This document shows, one piece after another, positions 152 through 5,668 of a stretch of 7,015 nucleotides of DNA; positions within the stretch are counted from its first letter, which is position 1; each line of letters starts with the position of its first letter. Position numbers and translations under genes: made by a program. Origin of the DNA: Candidatus Helarchaeota ASGARD archaeon Hel_GB_B (GTDB lineage: Archaea; Asgardarchaeota; Lokiarchaeia; Helarchaeales; HEL-GB-B); the NCBI GenBank assembly GCA_005191425.1, contig SUPR01000140.1, positions 1 through 7,015 of the forward strand. The letters are read 5' to 3'. The notes beneath the pieces are model-generated. The model searched no databases, was not told where the DNA came from, and saw nothing but the letters and a program-made list of their open reading frames with translations.

Positions 152-982
152 ATGTCTATAACTGTTATAAAATTAGGTGGTAAATTATTATCTCAAGAAA
201 ATAAATTTGAAAATGTAATAAAAGATATAGCTAATTTAATAAAAAATAAAAAAGATAAAATTGTTTTGGTTCATGGCGGAGGACCACAAATTAATAAAAT
301 GTTAAGAGCAGTAGGAAAAGAGCCAAGAATTGTAAAATCAGTTTCGGGTATGCAAACAAGAATAACTGATAAAGAAACTTTAGAAATTGCTCAAATGGTA
401 ATGGTTGGAAAATTAAATAAATTATTGGTTTCAAAATTTGAATCTTTAGGAATAAAATCAGTTGGTATCTGTGGTGCAGATGGAACTACAATCCAAGCTA
501 AAAGAAAAGATAATTTACGAATTATAGATGAAAAAACTGGAAAGAAAATTGCAATTCATGATGATTATAGTGGTAGAATTGAGCATATAGACCCTACATT
601 AATAAATATTTTGTTAGAAAATGATTATTTACCAATTATTGCACCAATTGGGATTGGTTTAGAATACGAGTTGCTAAATTTAGATGCAGATAGAGTAGCT
701 GGATATATAGGTGCTGCATTAAAAGCAAAGAAATTACTATTATTTACAGATGTAGAAGGCGTTATAATTGATGGAAAAGTCATAGATAGTATTGGAAAAG
801 AGGAATTAAAAGATATTTTGAACAAAGTTGAGGGTGGTATGAAGAAAAAAATTTATGCTGCAAGTGAAGCACTTAATTTAGGAATAAAAACGGTATATAT
901 AGGATCAGGTATTTTAGAGAACCCAATTTCTTCTGTTTTAGAAGGAAAAACAGGAACAGTTGTTTCTTGGAGTTTTGTATAA
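152..982 (+). CDS. lysZ: [LysW]-aminoadipate/[LysW]-glutamate kinase (amino-acid kinase family)
   Basis: Amino-acid kinase motifs KLGG, VHGGG, NLDAD and GGMKKK. It also has the LysZ-type features PRIVKSVSGMQTRITDKETLE and the basic hairpin KRKDNLRIIDEKTGKKIAIHDDYSG, which classical ArgB lacks. It lies between lysX and lysK. Confidence 0.88.
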   Translation: MSITVIKLGGKLLSQENKFENVIKDIANLIKNKKDKIVLVHGGGPQINKMLRAVGKEPRIVKSVSGMQTRITDKETLEIAQMVMVGKLNKLLVSKFESLGIKSVGICGADGTTIQAKRKDNLRIIDEKTGKKIAIHDDYSGRIEHIDPTLINILLENDYLPIIAPIGIGLEYELLNLDADRVAGYIGAALKAKKLLLFTDVEGVIIDGKVIDSIGKEELKDILNKVEGGMKKKIYAASEALNLGIKTVYIGSGILENPISSVLEGKTGTVVSWSFV

Positions 983-1007
983 ATACAATAAAAAGGATGT
1001 TAAAAAT

Positions 1008-2117
1008 TTGGATGATGAAAATTATTATATAAGCCTCCTTCTACAAGCATTAAAAATTTTTTCTCCATCAGGTAATGAAAAAAAGTTTGCAGAATTTTTA
1101 TATAATTTTTTAATTAAACATCATTTTAAAAATGTTAGATATGATAAAGCAGGTAATGTTATTGGAGAAATTGGTAGAGGAGCACCCGTTCTATTACTTG
1201 CCTCCCATATGGATACAATAAATGATTTTATCGAAGTAAAAGAAGAAAAAGATAGAATTTATGGACGTGGAGCTGTAGATGCTAAAGGTCCCCTTATGGC
1301 TCTTGCAATTGCTTCATCTAAATTTTGTGATAAAGATTTTAATGGAAAAATTATTTTTGCAGGAATTGTAAAAGAAGAAATTAGTACCGATGGTATTGAA
1401 ACATTTTTAAATAATAATAGAAAAATAGATTTCGCGATATTTTCAGAACCAAATAATACAAAAAATATAGTAGTTGCTTATAAAGGTAGAACATCATTAA
1501 AAGTAAAATTGACATCAAATAAAGGGATTGGACATCCAGCAATTTCTTGGCTCTTTAAAAATAGTATAGAATTAGCATTTCAATATTATAATCAAATAAA
1601 AGGTTTATGTAATACAAAATATAAAGGAAGAACTCCTTATTTTAGTGTTATTCCAACAATAACTGAATTTAAATCAGCTGAAGGTAAAAATATTATTCCA
1701 TCTTGGGCAGAATTTTATTTAGATATAAGATATCCCTATGGTATAGATATAGAAAATATCTTTAAGGAAATTGATGAAATAAAATTAAAGTTTATGGAAA
1801 AAAATGATTGTGTAATAGAGCATACAATAATAAGCAATGTCTACCCATATTCAGTTAATCCAAAAATAGAATTTATAAAATATTTGTCAGAATCTATTGA
1901 AGAAATTTTAAATGAAAAAAGTAAATTAACAAGAAAAACTGGAACAACATTTATGAACGTTATTGGAAATACATTAAAAATACCAACTATTAGTTATGGA
2001 CCAGGAGATCCGACACTTGAACATACAAAAGGAGAATATATTTTAAAAGAAGATTTTTTAAATAGTATTAAAATTTTAGAATTATTTATTAAGAAATTTT
2101 TTATGATTTTAGAATAG
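1008..2117 (+). CDS. lysK: [LysW]-lysine/[LysW]-ornithine hydrolase (M20 family)
   Basis: M20 motifs SPSGNE, SHMD, YGRGAVDAKGP, KEE and SEP, plus LysK-type YKGR, DIRYP, KTGTxxMN and SYGPGDxxLEHT. Start moved from the track's 960 to the in-frame TTG at 1008: it removes the overlap with lysZ, has AGGA at 994-997 and gives a LysK-like N-terminal length. Confidence 0.85.
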   Translation: MDDENYYISLLLQALKIFSPSGNEKKFAEFLYNFLIKHHFKNVRYDKAGNVIGEIGRGAPVLLLASHMDTINDFIEVKEEKDRIYGRGAVDAKGPLMALAIASSKFCDKDFNGKIIFAGIVKEEISTDGIETFLNNNRKIDFAIFSEPNNTKNIVVAYKGRTSLKVKLTSNKGIGHPAISWLFKNSIELAFQYYNQIKGLCNTKYKGRTPYFSVIPTITEFKSAEGKNIIPSWAEFYLDIRYPYGIDIENIFKEIDEIKLKFMEKNDCVIEHTIISNVYPYSVNPKIEFIKYLSESIEEILNEKSKLTRKTGTTFMNVIGNTLKIPTISYGPGDPTLEHTKGEYILKEDFLNSIKILELFIKKFFMILE

Positions 2118-3105
2118 ATACTAGCAGTCCTTTTTGGACATGTAATCTATTTTCAGCTTGATCATAAATGACAGAATGTTTACCATCACATACACTATCT
2201 GTCGCAACTATATTTCTTCTAATAGGCATACAGTGCATAAAAATTGAATTTTTATTGGTAAGTTCCATTAATTCGTCATTACAAATCCAAATACCTCTAT
2301 ATGGAAGTCTAAATTTTTTCTCTTCCTTAGGTTTACCATAATATTTTAGAGAACACCAAGATTTAACATAAATAATATCTGCATCTTGATAAGCTTCTTT
2401 AATTGAATGTTTTATCTCAAAAGAACCGCCAGAATTTTCTGCATTCTCTTTTGCTTGTTCAATAATTTTTTGGTCCAATTCATATCCAGGAGGATGAGCT
2501 AAAGTAACATCTAAACCGAATCTTGTCATAATTAAAACTGTCGAATTAGGTACACTTAAAGGGAGAGGAAAAGGATGATATGCCCATGAGAGAACGAATT
2601 TCTTATTTTTAATATTATTAAATTTTTCTTTAATGGTCATTATATCTGCTAATGCTTGGCATGGATGATATAAATCATCTTCCATATTAATTACAGGGGC
2701 ATCTGAATATTTTACAAATTCACGTACAACTTGATTGCTTGCACCATATTTCCAATTAGTTATGTTGGGAAAAATTCTAATTGAAATAACATCTCCATAT
2801 CTGGACAGTACTTTTACAGTATCTTTAATACTTTCACTTTTCCTACCAAGCCAACTTTTATTTGCATCAATAAAAATAGCGTGCCCACCTAATTGGGTCA
2901 TTCCTACCTCAAATGAATTTCTAGTTCTTGTAGATGGACTAAAAAATATCATAATAAGAGTATAACCCGGTAATAATTCAATACTTTTATAATCACCTTT
3001 TTTAAAATTGCGCTTTAATTCAAAAGCTTTTTTTAAGACGGTATCAATTTCATCTTTTGACCATTCTTGAGTTGTAATGAGACTCTTATTTTTCAAATTA
3101 CTCAT
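2101..3105 (-). CDS. argF': ArgF'-type (N-acyl-ornithine; AOTCase/SOTCase-like) carbamoyltransferase
   Basis: Carbamoyl-phosphate motifs STRTR and HPCQ. It has the N-acyl-ornithine transcarbamylase signatures TTQEWS, IRIFP, INME, WAYHPFPLPLSVPNS, YVKSW (replacing the DxxxSMG motif of free-ornithine OTCases), HCMPIRRN and AENRLHVQK. ATG at 3105 is preferred over TTG at 3117 because GGTGG lies 5 nt upstream. Confidence 0.88.
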   Translation of the reverse strand: MSNLKNKSLITTQEWSKDEIDTVLKKAFELKRNFKKGDYKSIELLPGYTLIMIFFSPSTRTRNSFEVGMTQLGGHAIFIDANKSWLGRKSESIKDTVKVLSRYGDVISIRIFPNITNWKYGASNQVVREFVKYSDAPVINMEDDLYHPCQALADIMTIKEKFNNIKNKKFVLSWAYHPFPLPLSVPNSTVLIMTRFGLDVTLAHPPGYELDQKIIEQAKENAENSGGSFEIKHSIKEAYQDADIIYVKSWCSLKYYGKPKEEKKFRLPYRGIWICNDELMELTNKNSIFMHCMPIRRNIVATDSVCDGKHSVIYDQAENRLHVQKGLLVSILKS

Positions 3106-3110
3106 CAGTT

Positions 3111-3115
3111 CCACC
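3111..3115 (-). promoter_or_regulatory. Ribosome-binding site for argF'
   Basis: Minus strand reads GGTGG-AACTG-ATG. Confidence 0.6.
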
Positions 3116-3128
3116 AAGGTATAAGTAT

Positions 3129-3138: not shown

Positions 3139-3552
3139 TTACCATAATGAATCTTTTATTCTTTTTATAGGTATATTACTAAAAATATCTAAAACTACTT
3201 TTTTAAAGTTTTTAAATACATGAACATTACCATCCCAATTTGAAATTCTATCTCCATATTCTGCCATAAATTGTTTTTCAATTGTTTTTAATAATTTACG
3301 AATATAATTTTCTTTTATTGCTTTTGGGGTTCTTACAACAAAAAAAAGATCTTTTTCACCATGCAATATAGTTAATTTAGAATTTCCAAAAACAATAGAA
3401 GTTAATTTCTCTCCTTGTAAATTCTCAATATAATTTTTTATAGCAGTCAGAAAGCTCCCTACTAGAATATTATCATCAGATTCTTTCAGGAAGAGCCAAA
3501 ATAGTGTTACTCCACCAGAATTCATTATCCAAAAATCTTGAACGAATTCCAT
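3139..3552 (-). CDS. Stand-alone longin-like domain protein (Asgard-type)
   Basis: 137 aa with longin-like order: N-terminal beta-hairpin (QDFWIMNSGGVTLF), helix (ILVGSFLTAIKNYIENL), three strands (SIVFG, KLTILH, LFFVVR), helix, NWDGN-x-x-x-F motif and a C-terminal Trp. AGGT lies 8 nt upstream of the ATG. The fold call is from pattern recognition. Confidence 0.68.
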   Translation of the reverse strand: MEFVQDFWIMNSGGVTLFWLFLKESDDNILVGSFLTAIKNYIENLQGEKLTSIVFGNSKLTILHGEKDLFFVVRTPKAIKENYIRKLLKTIEKQFMAEYGDRISNWDGNVHVFKNFKKVVLDIFSNIPIKRIKDSLW

Positions 3553-3612
3553 TTATAATTACCTAATTTATGTAAACTAATTAAATACTAACTAATATGA
3601 AAATAAAAGTTC

Positions 3613-3620
3613 TATATAAA
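3613..3620 (-). promoter_or_regulatory. Candidate TATA box for the longin-like gene
   Basis: TTTATATA on the minus strand about 60-68 nt upstream of the ATG. There is no clear BRE and the background is very AT-rich. Confidence 0.3.
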
Positions 3621-3735
3621 TTATAATTAAATATCTATTTTTCATTAATAAAATCTTTAATTTTATAAAATAATATATAAATTTTTAAATTTTAAGTTAC
3701 GAAAATATTAAAAAACTAAGATATATTTAAAAAAA

Positions 3736-3749
3736 TCAAATTAATTTGA
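3736..3749. repeat. Perfect 14-bp palindrome TCAAATTAATTTGA in the divergent intergenic region
   Basis: Read directly. A second palindrome with the same AAATTAATTT core (AAAATTAATTTT) lies at 3817-3828. Function is unproven. Confidence 0.45.
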
Positions 3750-3897
3750 CAATAAAAAAATAAATATTAAAAAGATACGCTAAATAAAACTAATAATCTC
3801 TTTTAAAAAAATTTCAAAAATTAATTTTATAAAAAAGTAAATTAAGAATTAAATAAATTAAATTTTAATTAGAATGTTTAATAAAAATAAAAAAGTT

Positions 3898-3902
3898 GAG
3901 GT
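3898..3902 (+). promoter_or_regulatory. Ribosome-binding site for the 7TM gene
   Basis: GAGGT, 9 nt before the TTG at 3912. Confidence 0.65.
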
Positions 3903-3911
3903 TATAGTCAA

Positions 3912-4715
3912 TTGGTGGCTAAATCAGATTTATTTGACCCACAAATTCATTTATTACCATTAATATTTGAGTTTATTGTATTTATTATTATTTTATATTT
4001 AAGTAAATTAATTTATTCAAAATATAAGGAGCGTAAAACTATTCCAACATTATTTTTAGCCTTAGCCTTATTTTCAATTGCTTTAGCTCCTTTTATTGCA
4101 TTTACAGGTTTATTTAGTTGGATGATTTTATGGATTATTAATGGCTTTAATCCTACATTAAGTCCTGATTATTATTCAATAAGTATGCCTATCGGATTTC
4201 TATTTGTTATATTATATGATATCTTTTTAATTTTCTTTACTATTCATATTTTTTGGGATAAAAATAATAAAAAAGCAATTCCATTCATTATTGTTGGTAT
4301 TATAATTGCTATTTTACTGTTTTTACCTAATAATTATTATGGAGTAGATCCAGGTCCGAACGATCCACCTAGTATAAGAGCGTATACGCAAGGAGTATAT
4401 TTTATTTATAATTTAATTATTTATATTATAGTTGCTATTTTTGCTTTTAGAGAGGCAATACGTATAGAGGAAAGAGTATATAAAATAGGATTTGAATGTA
4501 TAGCTTTTGCTCAATTAAGTAATATTATTATTTTTTTATCTTTTTTATGTGATGCAATTATTCTTTTATTTAATCCTGCAAGTCCAGGATATTCAATTTT
4601 TGTTGTAATTGCATGGATTTTTGCAGTTGTATCATCTATTTTGGTATATTTAGGTTTTATACTTCCAGATTGGTTTAAAAAATTGATACAAAAAGGTAAA
4701 TTAAAAACAGTATAA
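3912..4715 (+). CDS. Uncharacterised seven-transmembrane protein
   Basis: Seven hydrophobic segments at about aa 14-35, 46-76, 90-114, 122-138, 160-179, 197-220 and 228-251. Basic loops alternate with Pro/Gly/Tyr loops, and the C-terminus is YLGFILPDWFKK. TTG start with a GAGGT RBS. Confidence 0.8.
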   Translation: MVAKSDLFDPQIHLLPLIFEFIVFIIILYLSKLIYSKYKERKTIPTLFLALALFSIALAPFIAFTGLFSWMILWIINGFNPTLSPDYYSISMPIGFLFVILYDIFLIFFTIHIFWDKNNKKAIPFIIVGIIIAILLFLPNNYYGVDPGPNDPPSIRAYTQGVYFIYNLIIYIIVAIFAFREAIRIEERVYKIGFECIAFAQLSNIIIFLSFLCDAIILLFNPASPGYSIFVVIAWIFAVVSSILVYLGFILPDWFKKLIQKGKLKTV

Positions 4716-4762
4716 AGATAATATAAACATATTTATTATATTATTAGTAGTAGGTTAAATTT

Positions 4763-5668
4763 ATGGGAAAAAAAAATACTGCTGTAATTGGAGCCGGGTG
4801 GTTTGGCTCAGCCCACGCAAGAGTTTTAAATTCTCTTTCAAATCTTGTAGCTATTTGTGATATAGATATTAATAAAGCAAAATCGTTAGCAGAGAAATAT
4901 AATATCAATTATTATTCAGATTATAATGAATTAATAAAAAATGAAAAAATAGATTCTGTTAGTATTGTAGTTCCACCAAAAGAAATTCCAAAAATTGCAG
5001 AAAAATTAGCTTCAAAAGGAATTAATGTATTATTAGAAAAACCATTGGGAGTAGATTTAGATTCAGTTAAAAGATTGCTAAAATACGATAATGTTAGATT
5101 AATGTGTGGATTTATTGAACTTTTTAATCCAGTTATCGAACGATTGAAAAATAATCTACATAGAATAGGACATATTATAATGGTTAGTTCTAGACGAATT
5201 GGAAGACATCCACATAGAAATTGGGACATTGGTGTTATATTAGATTTAGGAATTCATTCAATATATATTCAAAGATTTCTTTTTGGCGATGTTATCGAAC
5301 AAAAATCAATGTTAACTTATGGACATAATAGTAAATATGAAGATGCTGCCTTTATCTTATTAAGATATAGTAGTGGAGTTAAAGGATTAATTGAAGCAAA
5401 TTGGTTGACATCTGCAAAATATCGTAAATTAATAGTGTATGGAGAATATGGCTCTTTAGAAATTGATTATATTACTCAAGAATTAAAATTTATTTCAAGT
5501 GAAGAAAAAGATCCTCAATATAAATATATTGAGATTTCTCAGCCTTACACCTTCGAGGAGCCACTAAGAAGGGAAATTTATGCGTTTCTTTATAATAAGA
5601 AGAATCCAGTACCAATAGAAGAAGGAATTAAAAGTTTAGAAATTGCTTTAAATTCTTATAAATCATAA
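4763..5668 (+). CDS. Gfo/Idh/MocA-family NAD(P)-dependent oxidoreductase (WlbA/WbpB-like; substrate unknown)
   Basis: Rossmann motif VIGAGWFG, plus AICDID, LLEKP, FNP, DLGIH and EANWLT. AGGT RBS at 4752-4755. Confidence 0.88.
   Translation: MGKKNTAVIGAGWFGSAHARVLNSLSNLVAICDIDINKAKSLAEKYNINYYSDYNELIKNEKIDSVSIVVPPKEIPKIAEKLASKGINVLLEKPLGVDLDSVKRLLKYDNVRLMCGFIELFNPVIERLKNNLHRIGHIIMVSSRRIGRHPHRNWDIGVILDLGIHSIYIQRFLFGDVIEQKSMLTYGHNSKYEDAAFILLRYSSGVKGLIEANWLTSAKYRKLIVYGEYGSLEIDYITQELKFISSEEKDPQYKYIEISQPYTFEEPLRREIYAFLYNKKNPVPIEEGIKSLEIALNSYKS

Follow-up and report, generated by a model that had tools for sequence, protein, structure and literature searches.

An N-acyl-ornithine-type transcarbamylase beside a LysW-type arginine cluster in Asgard archaea: a candidate carbamoyltransferase for carrier-bound ornithine

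In the LysW systems described so far, LysK frees ornithine and a canonical ornithine transcarbamylase (OTCase) makes citrulline. The N-acetylornithine and N-succinylornithine transcarbamylases (AOTCase and SOTCase) have an extended 80's loop, which reaches over from the adjacent subunit to cap the acyl pocket, and the YgeW-type transcarbamylase (YTCase) is linked to carbamate kinase and catabolism. Here we describe a stretch of DNA from the Asgard archaeon Candidatus Helarchaeota Hel_GB_B (contig SUPR01000140.1) in which a LysW-type arginine cluster adjoins a transcarbamylase, ArgF', of N-acyl-ornithine type. From its sequence and gene context we give about an even chance that this enzyme is a LysW-gamma-ornithine carbamoyltransferase whose product LysK would cleave to set citrulline free. 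The stretch, hereafter the window, is an entire contig (C48) of 7,015 bp and 25% G+C; its bin (G000) is a metagenome-assembled genome (MAG) of 3.54 Mb in 182 contigs, with a completeness of 93.7% and a contamination of 4.9%, and the database proteins closest to those of the window are labelled Lokiarchaeota, Promethearchaeota and further Asgard groups.

An earlier note on this DNA had read positions 152-3105 as a LysW-type gene cluster abutting an ArgF'-type, non-canonical transcarbamylase. Profile models, motifs and gene positions confirm that reading, and the coordinates are accurate. The genes concerned, including the one at the contig edge, are:

2-136, + strand: C-terminal 44 residues of LysX/ArgX (ATP-grasp ligase), in an open-ended open reading frame (ORF); TIGR02144 positions 237-280, 35 bits
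152-982, + strand: LysZ, [LysW]-glutamate/aminoadipate kinase; PF00696; NF010662, 232.6 bits (cut-off 194)
960-2117, + strand: LysK-type M20 metallohydrolase; PF01546/PF07687; TIGR01902, 221.8 bits (cut-off 163.1)
2101-3105, - strand: ArgF'-type transcarbamylase; NF003384 match, TIGR00658 below cut-off, motifs, tree and AlphaFold2 (AF2) model

The lysK and argF' genes converge tail to tail with a 17-bp overlap. The argF' ORF runs from 2101 to 3117 on the - strand and is open to a TTG at 3117, the likely start being the ATG at 3105, which gives 334 aa. The start codon of lysK is uncertain, with a TTG at 960, yet similarity to a second copy in the bin (contig C180) starting at residue 17; the LysK equivalog model NF003367 scores 213.9 bits on this protein, under its cut-off of 363.

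The contig ends inside lysX, which leaves LysW itself outside the window: lysW, argH and argG have been lost from it through the contig break. The complete locus, in the order argG-argH-lysW-lysX-lysZ-lysK-><-argF', is found on contig C180 (locus L006) of the same bin, together with a 141-aa gene, and in two other assemblies (L051, 275 kb; L054, 92 kb), whose ArgF' is 78% identical to that of the window. In all three of these orthologous loci, LysW lies just upstream of lysX (PF21344; NF041070, 62 bits) and ends in DDWGE. With LysZ and LysK in the window, LysJ and a LysY fragment on contig C157 of the bin, and LysW in the orthologous loci, the cluster is a genuine LysW-type arginine cluster.

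L051 and L054 also have the extended neighbours of the window, namely a 137-aa gene, a membrane protein, a GFO/IDH/MocA gene, a JAB gene and a cyclophilin-like gene. Within the bin, C48 and C180, the latter together with contig C172, which begins with a second JAB and cyclophilin-like pair, are two diverged syntenic versions of one locus of about 15 kb. Over the eight gene pairs compared, their proteins (LysX fragment, LysZ, LysK, ArgF', a longin protein, JAB and cyclophilin-like) are 38-84% identical: the LysX fragment is 84% identical to the C-terminus of the full-length LysX on C180, and ArgF', LysZ and LysK are 75%, 70% and 61% identical to their C180 copies. We considered whether the two were paralogous clusters of one genome and rejected this, as the extended neighbourhood equals that of single-copy loci in better assemblies. 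Since both share that neighbourhood, they are orthologous versions of one locus, most likely from two co-binned relatives, a large old duplication being less likely. The MAG therefore probably mixes two related Loki-type organisms, and presence or absence calls for the bin as a whole genome need to be read with care.

The transcarbamylase has both superfamily domains (PF02729, 1.5e-44; PF00185, 5.8e-39) and all of the superfamily motifs STRTR, HPCQ and HCMP, along with the R112 equivalent, and it retains every catalytic and carbamoyl-phosphate-binding residue. It passes NF003384 (N-acetylornithine carbamoyltransferase; 352.1 bits, cut-off 288), falls short of TIGR00658, the model for canonical OTCases (264.8 bits, cut-off 280.85), and scores far below the cut-offs of the YgeW models. 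The DxxxSMG motif is absent, as the earlier note had said of ArgF' enzymes in general: the window enzyme reads DIIYVKSWCSL at the site where the canonical OTCase of the bin has DIIYTDTWVSMG, with YVKSWCSL standing in place of DTWVSMG. A proline-rich loop, YHPFPLPLSVPNS, and the motif HCMPIRRN are present, and the 120's region aligns gap-free with AOTCase. The best sequence match in the PDB is the Xanthomonas campestris AOTCase (E 4e-83). An AF2 model with a pLDDT (predicted local distance difference test) of 96.6 has as its top PDB match the AOTCase structure 3KZK (template modelling (TM) score 0.91, 42% identity), and AOTCase structures as a group (TM 0.90-0.91) come ahead of canonical OTCases. 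The neighbour of the LysW cluster is thus, on models, motifs and the AF2 match, a genuine N-acyl-ornithine-type transcarbamylase of the knotted class, the class being read from sequence and model.

In a FastTree phylogeny rooted on canonical OTCases, 31 Asgard sequences including the window enzyme are monophyletic (support 0.97) and sister to AOTCases plus SOTCases. Across this clade, the YHPxPLPxSVPNS loop is invariant, as are the K252 and E144 equivalents, the alpha-carboxylate anchors of N-acyl-ornithine transcarbamylases, which the window enzyme keeps; W77, E144, K252 and R298 all have conserved equivalents, and so do H176 and R278, which anchor succinyl in SOTCase. AOTCase is marked by Glu92, Asn185 and Lys302 in X. 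campestris numbering, and SOTCase by Ala, Ser, Pro, Val or Gln at 92, Pro at 185 and Val, Ile or Glu at 302 (PMC4581275). The window enzyme has Ser, Pro and Val at these positions (S94, P186 and V304 in the 338-aa ORF; minus 4 for the 334-aa product), and all 31 clade members aligned have the SOTCase-type triad S, P, V/E/I. Its public annotation as an AOTCase is thus unsupported.

The clade also differs from both bacterial types in its 80's loop, which keeps the substrate-binding Trp and is 10 residues shorter. In the clade, 6 residues (7 in one of 31) separate W77 from E92, as compared to 15-20, nearly always 16, in each of 42 bacterial-type RRN representatives drawn from a search over 1.8 billion cluster representatives. 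With a SOTCase-like triad, a short 80's loop and a place in the tree outside AOTCases plus SOTCases, the enzyme is neither an AOTCase nor a typical SOTCase, and we read the clade as a third, Asgard-only branch of the knotted N-acyl-ornithine transcarbamylases.

The same loop and the same place in the tree bear on a different explanation, which is that this is a knotted-fold OTCase taking the free ornithine that LysK supplies, as in Sulfolobus and Thermococcus, and either duplicating the canonical OTCase or, in the Loki-class genus g3, replacing it. In the loop, the W/Q and E92 positions are separated by 5-6 residues, as in OTCases, and the clade falls outside AOTCases plus SOTCases on an OTC-rooted tree; the association with LysW and arginine genes is accommodated equally well, as is g3, where the clade enzyme is the sole ornithine-type transcarbamylase. 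Such an enzyme would nevertheless have to bind free ornithine with no DxxxSMG or other evident alpha-ammonium site and with acyl-pocket residues held invariant in the SOTCase pattern, when its characterised relatives do not use free ornithine (PMC4581275), and it would be redundant with the canonical OTCase kept in 15 of the 19 genomes that have the clade. We consider this explanation unlikely, though by no means negligible.

Where the clade occurs also points to a LysW-bound substrate. Among 151 Asgard genomes, each at least 80% complete, canonical OTCase is found in 135, LysW in 28 and the clade transcarbamylase in 19, these being the window's bin and members of the Loki-class genera g3, g7 and g8 and of families f9 and f19. 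Clade membership was assigned by motif in 10 of the 19 and by score plus genus in the other nine (G028, G046, G054, G060, G066, G071, G076, G103 and the C180-type copy of G000). The co-occurrence of argF' with LysW, a check proposed in the earlier note, was borne out, as all 19 clade genomes have LysW or a LysW-like gene: 17 have LysW at E<=1e-8, and in the remaining two a LysW-like gene whose product ends in EDWRE adjoins lysZ. Twelve LysW-bearing genomes are without the clade, and 11 of these have canonical OTCase. Other Asgard families have more distantly related ArgF'-like proteins whose motifs differ, and no LysW was found in the genomes that encode them.

The tail-to-tail arrangement also recurs. 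A lysK-><-argF' layout, preceded by argG-argH-lysW-lysX-lysZ, is found in a closed genome of family f19 (G038) and in two genomes of family f9 (G006 and G017); a Frey-labelled contig has the same tail-to-tail pair, in a cluster that includes lysY, a Jord-labelled contig has the layout with one gene between the two, and a Hel-labelled contig has it with three small genes between. Counting exact arrangements and those within about 3 kb, the synteny of argF' with lysW clusters extends to at least six Asgard lineages.

Synteny may of course be inherited by genes that share no pathway, and the enzyme would then carbamoylate some other amine, as other uncharacterised Asgard transcarbamylase clades may do. 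The longin protein and the GFO/IDH/MocA, JAB and cyclophilin-like genes are likewise syntenic without an obvious functional link, and Asgard genomes carry several more transcarbamylase paralogues whose roles are uncharacterised. Against this, the lysK/argF' pairing persists in lineages whose other flanking genes differ, the E144 and K252 anchors for ornithine and its alpha-carboxylate are invariant, and the clade is confined to genomes with LysW, all of which makes inherited synteny a very improbable explanation.

As a separate observation on these paralogues, other Asgard families have 1-4 further transcarbamylases with motifs of their own (such as HCLPADRG, PVFRGEEA and RSWCSVQ loops), some in divergent pairs. 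Their loci include L039 (G011) at 9561-11748 and L041 (G123) at 4019-5074 and 14228-15262, as well as L040, L042-L044 and L048-L050, and neither LysW nor ArgJ was found in the genomes that carry them.

Of genes for the kinase, reductase, aminotransferase and deacylase steps, the bin yielded a single set; it is LysW-type and sited with lysW/lysX. LysA is present (446 bits), so that the diaminopimelate (DAP) route can supply lysine and the single LysW system serves arginine. ArgJ, which the earlier note had proposed to look for, was found neither in the bin nor in the other 18 genomes with the clade; of 35 genomes checked in all, one has it. The aspartate transcarbamylase (ATCase) of the bin is on contig C141.

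These genes bear on whether the enzyme could be a genuine transcarbamylase of N-succinyl-ornithine, or of ornithine with another small N-acyl group, fed by some further N-acyl-glutamate route or by salvage, with the LysW route running in textbook fashion through LysK and OTCase. The diagnostic triad is exactly that of SOTCase, most clade genomes have the canonical OTCase that a textbook route would use, argF' forms a separate convergent transcription unit, and N-succinylglutamate synthases were long overlooked in bacteria (bioRxiv 10.1101/2024.10.14.618325). Yet the only kinase, reductase, aminotransferase and deacylase set in the bin is LysW-type, the clade occurs in no sampled genome without LysW, the enzyme is without the extended 80's loop common to all bacterial-type AOTCase and SOTCase representatives, and genus g3 would be left without an enzyme for its LysW-derived ornithine. 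We consider a small-acyl substrate improbable.

The four g3 genomes (89-100% complete) are informative here, as canonical OTCase was found in none of them. They have the clade enzyme, LysW, LysX, LysY and ArgG, and LysA is present in both of those checked for it (G030 and G142). With the clade enzyme as the sole ornithine-type transcarbamylase and ArgG kept, a textbook route plus an unrelated enzyme is excluded for g3. In three other lineages, the clade enzyme and canonical OTCase have long coexisted and the active-site signature of the clade is unchanged, which argues that the two are not redundant in substrate.

Families f9 and f19 have two LysW systems, an argF'-linked lysW/X/Z/K set and a complete lysW-X-Y-Z-J-K cluster elsewhere. 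In the regions examined of G038 (L033 and L056) and G006 (L034 and L057), LysY and LysJ are only in the complete cluster, and they may be shared between both systems. LysA was not found in family f19, which fits a role of the second, complete cluster in making lysine. The two carrier proteins can be told apart: the argF'-linked LysW proteins share the motif CP(E/S)CY(F/Y)EF, and those of the other cluster read CPECxA. Of 11 clade-associated LysW sequences compared, 10 have the CP(E/S)CY(F/Y)EF motif, the exception being a divergent g8 LysW that reads ECYFE and ends in EDWRE.

Taken together, the N-acyl-ornithine architecture, the occurrence of the clade only with LysW and often beside lysK, and the fact that the only ornithine genes visible are LysW-dependent point to a substrate that is N-blocked and supplied by LysW. 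In the route that we propose for the LysW-gamma-ornithine carbamoyltransferase, ArgX/LysX would join glutamate to the C-terminal Glu of LysW, and LysZ, LysY and LysJ, whose genes are present in the bin, would yield LysW-gamma-ornithine, both steps being those of the known pathway. The ArgF'-type enzyme would then carbamoylate the delta-amino group with the alpha-amino group still in its isopeptide linkage, giving LysW-gamma-citrulline, and the adjoining LysK paralogue would split this into citrulline and recycled LysW, mirroring the action of ArgE on N-acetyl- and N-succinyl-citrulline in Xanthomonas and Bacteroides. Arginine would be completed by ArgG and ArgH, whose genes head the locus in the complete assemblies. 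The gamma-glutamyl link amounts to a succinyl group plus one carbon bearing a carboxylate and the peptide chain; it thus resembles an extended succinyl, and a succinyl-type triad would be expected for such a linker. The short 80's loop, in turn, may open the acyl pocket to a protein-borne substrate. In most clade genomes the canonical OTCase would process free ornithine, in salvage or catabolism.

We also considered a stronger form of this proposal, in which Asgard archaea would have a dedicated arginine carrier system, with a LysW of the CP(E/S)CY(F/Y)EF type, its own LysX, LysZ and LysK, and a LysW-ornithine carbamoyltransferase, from which ornithine is never released. That would keep its intermediates separate from the free ornithine and citrulline on which the canonical, possibly catabolic, OTCase acts, and in the extreme form ArgG and ArgH would also act on carrier-bound substrates and LysK would free arginine. 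We regard this stronger form as a long shot.

Several findings weigh against a LysW-bound substrate. The earlier note had named a canonical OTCase serving the LysW route among the outcomes that would refute its model, and a canonical OTCase (414.7 bits) is indeed present in the bin, as follows.

Contig C164 (locus L007), 7568-8548: canonical OTCase of the bin, standing alone, away from arginine genes

The same holds for 15 of the 19 clade genomes, the closed genome G038 among them, so that most could run the textbook route, with LysK freeing the ornithine that OTCase turns into citrulline. The convergence of argF' with lysK makes it a separate transcription unit that is not co-transcribed with the cluster, and in genera g3, g7 and g8 argF' lies away from dispersed LysW genes. 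As for the protein itself, the equivalent of R178, a succinyl anchor in SOTCase, is Phe in the window enzyme and Lys, Arg or Asn in its relatives, the OTC-length loop and basal position of the clade fit use of free ornithine too, and no basic LysW-docking surface is evident from overall charge or clade-specific charge changes. Lastly, the evidence is wholly genomic, with free ornithine a possible substrate, and all genomes are MAGs or samples, the window's bin being apparently a mix of two related organisms.

An arginine deiminase (ADI)-type catabolic role was considered for the canonical OTCase; no carbamate kinase was found in the bin, though arginine deiminase and ArcE were not searched for. 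The neighbours of the OTCase on C164 are a PIG-L/BshB1-like deacetylase and several unannotated genes.

Overall charge was dropped as a proxy for a docking surface because it is uninformative: the Loki clade members are basic (isoelectric point 8.2-9.3), as is the canonical OTCase of the same bin, and the f9 and f19 members are acidic. The few positions at which the clade has gained basic residues are scattered, a weak signal, and two acidic positions conserved in bacterial AOTCases and SOTCases are lost in the Asgard clade, probably in the 120's region (in trimmed-alignment numbering). A complex prediction of two C180 ArgF' copies with their cognate LysW, run with no controls, scored 0.02 against a mark of 0.34 and speaks neither for nor against an interaction. 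Among long transcarbamylase homologues no fusions with LysW, LysK or LysX were found; there were just insertions, one Clp_N fusion and one OTC-carbamate-kinase fusion.

The other genes of the window are a membrane protein, a GFO/IDH/MocA oxidoreductase, a JAB/MPN protein, a cyclophilin-like protein and, next to argF', the following.

3139-3552, - strand: longin-domain protein of 137 aa, directly upstream of argF' with a 21-bp gap; no Pfam/NCBIfam match

The longin-like assignment comes from Atlas clusters carrying Fuz_longin_1 (score 0.95), and the protein is 38% identical to its C180 neighbour, the sole copy compared by sequence. In Loki-type relatives argF' has directly upstream, on its own strand, a gene of 137-141 aa with no recorded Pfam match, and this gene stays there even in Loki-type genomes where argF' is away from the LysW genes. 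It is a conserved neighbour in Loki-type genomes, probably without a metabolic role. Between the membrane-protein and GFO/IDH/MocA genes, L051 (7513-8525) and L054 (7564-8582) have an Arf-family small GTPase and a gene of 147-148 aa, neither of which is present in the window (3553-3911 and 4716-4762). The window spacer at 3553-3911 (360 bp) is extremely AT-rich, with 14.6% G+C over 3501-4000, and in L051 an MmeI-type restriction-modification gene is inserted between the JAB and GFO genes. We would also like to note that a contig deposited under the name of a bacterium, Candidatus Deferrimicrobium (GCA_035531115.1; L066), encodes an Asgard-clade transcarbamylase (P0014); it has archaeal-type Spt5-NGN/KOW, SecE, JAB and GFO genes ordered as on the Helarchaeota contig L068, and is probably a mis-binned Asgard contig.

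A full-text literature search, with subscription literature outside its scope, found no proposal of a transcarbamylase acting on LysW- or carrier-bound ornithine, nor do the transcarbamylase family review, the two GapMind papers, the 2025 Thermus LysW paper or the arginine synthetase paper make one. The proposed route combines two known kinds of pathway, the amino-group carrier protein (AmCP) pathway and the acyl-ornithine transcarbamylase route. If it is correct, this would be the first known case of a transcarbamylase working on a substrate linked to a protein, and the route would be a third variant of arginine synthesis that carbamoylates first and deprotects later, after the acetyl and succinyl ones, here merged with the carrier protein pathway. 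It would also illustrate how a short 80's loop can make a small-acyl active site accessible to a carrier protein. A systematic misannotation in Asgard genomes, "N-acetylornithine carbamoyltransferase", would be corrected, and the metabolism reconstructed for the nearest archaeal relatives of eukaryotes would change.

Among the described systems, the YgeW-type YTCase shares with the window enzyme the knotted fold and the short 80's loop of OTC length. Bulkier substrates, such as citrulline-containing peptides, have been speculated for so open a site (2015 review, PMC4581275). YTCase is tied to carbamate kinase and catabolism, and the window protein is far below the YgeW cut-offs.

The X. campestris AOTCase is the top PDB match in both sequence and structure, has the same fold class and pathway logic, and belongs to the family whose model, NF003384, the window enzyme passes. 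In contrast, its E92, N185 and K302 are S, P and V in the window enzyme, which also has the shorter 80's loop.

SOTCase is alike in its knotted fold, proline-rich loop and HCLPxRRN-type motif, in the conserved equivalents of W75/W77, E142/E144, K236/K252 and R278/R298, and in the diagnostic triad of a small residue at E92, Pro at N185 and V/I/E at K302. The proposed logic is also similar, in that carbamoylation would precede N-alpha deblocking by a hydrolase of the ArgE/LysK family. Unlike SOTCase, the window enzyme belongs to a separate Asgard-only clade outside AOTCases plus SOTCases, with an 80's loop 10 residues shorter and a variable R178 equivalent (F, K, R or N). Its genomic partners are lysW and lysX in place of a succinyl-glutamate route, and the acyl group proposed is the C-terminal gamma-glutamyl of a 6-kDa protein.

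The LysW route of Sulfolobus, Thermococcus and haloarchaea has the same LysW ending in EDWGE, homologues of ArgX/LysX, LysZ, LysY, LysJ and LysK, clustered argG and argH, and no ArgJ. The Asgard systems differ from it in the argF'-linked LysW motif CP(E/S)CY(F/Y)EF and in the extra complete lysWXYZJK cluster kept by two families, and in that a dedicated Asgard LysW/X/Z/K set pairs with an N-acyl-ornithine-type transcarbamylase.

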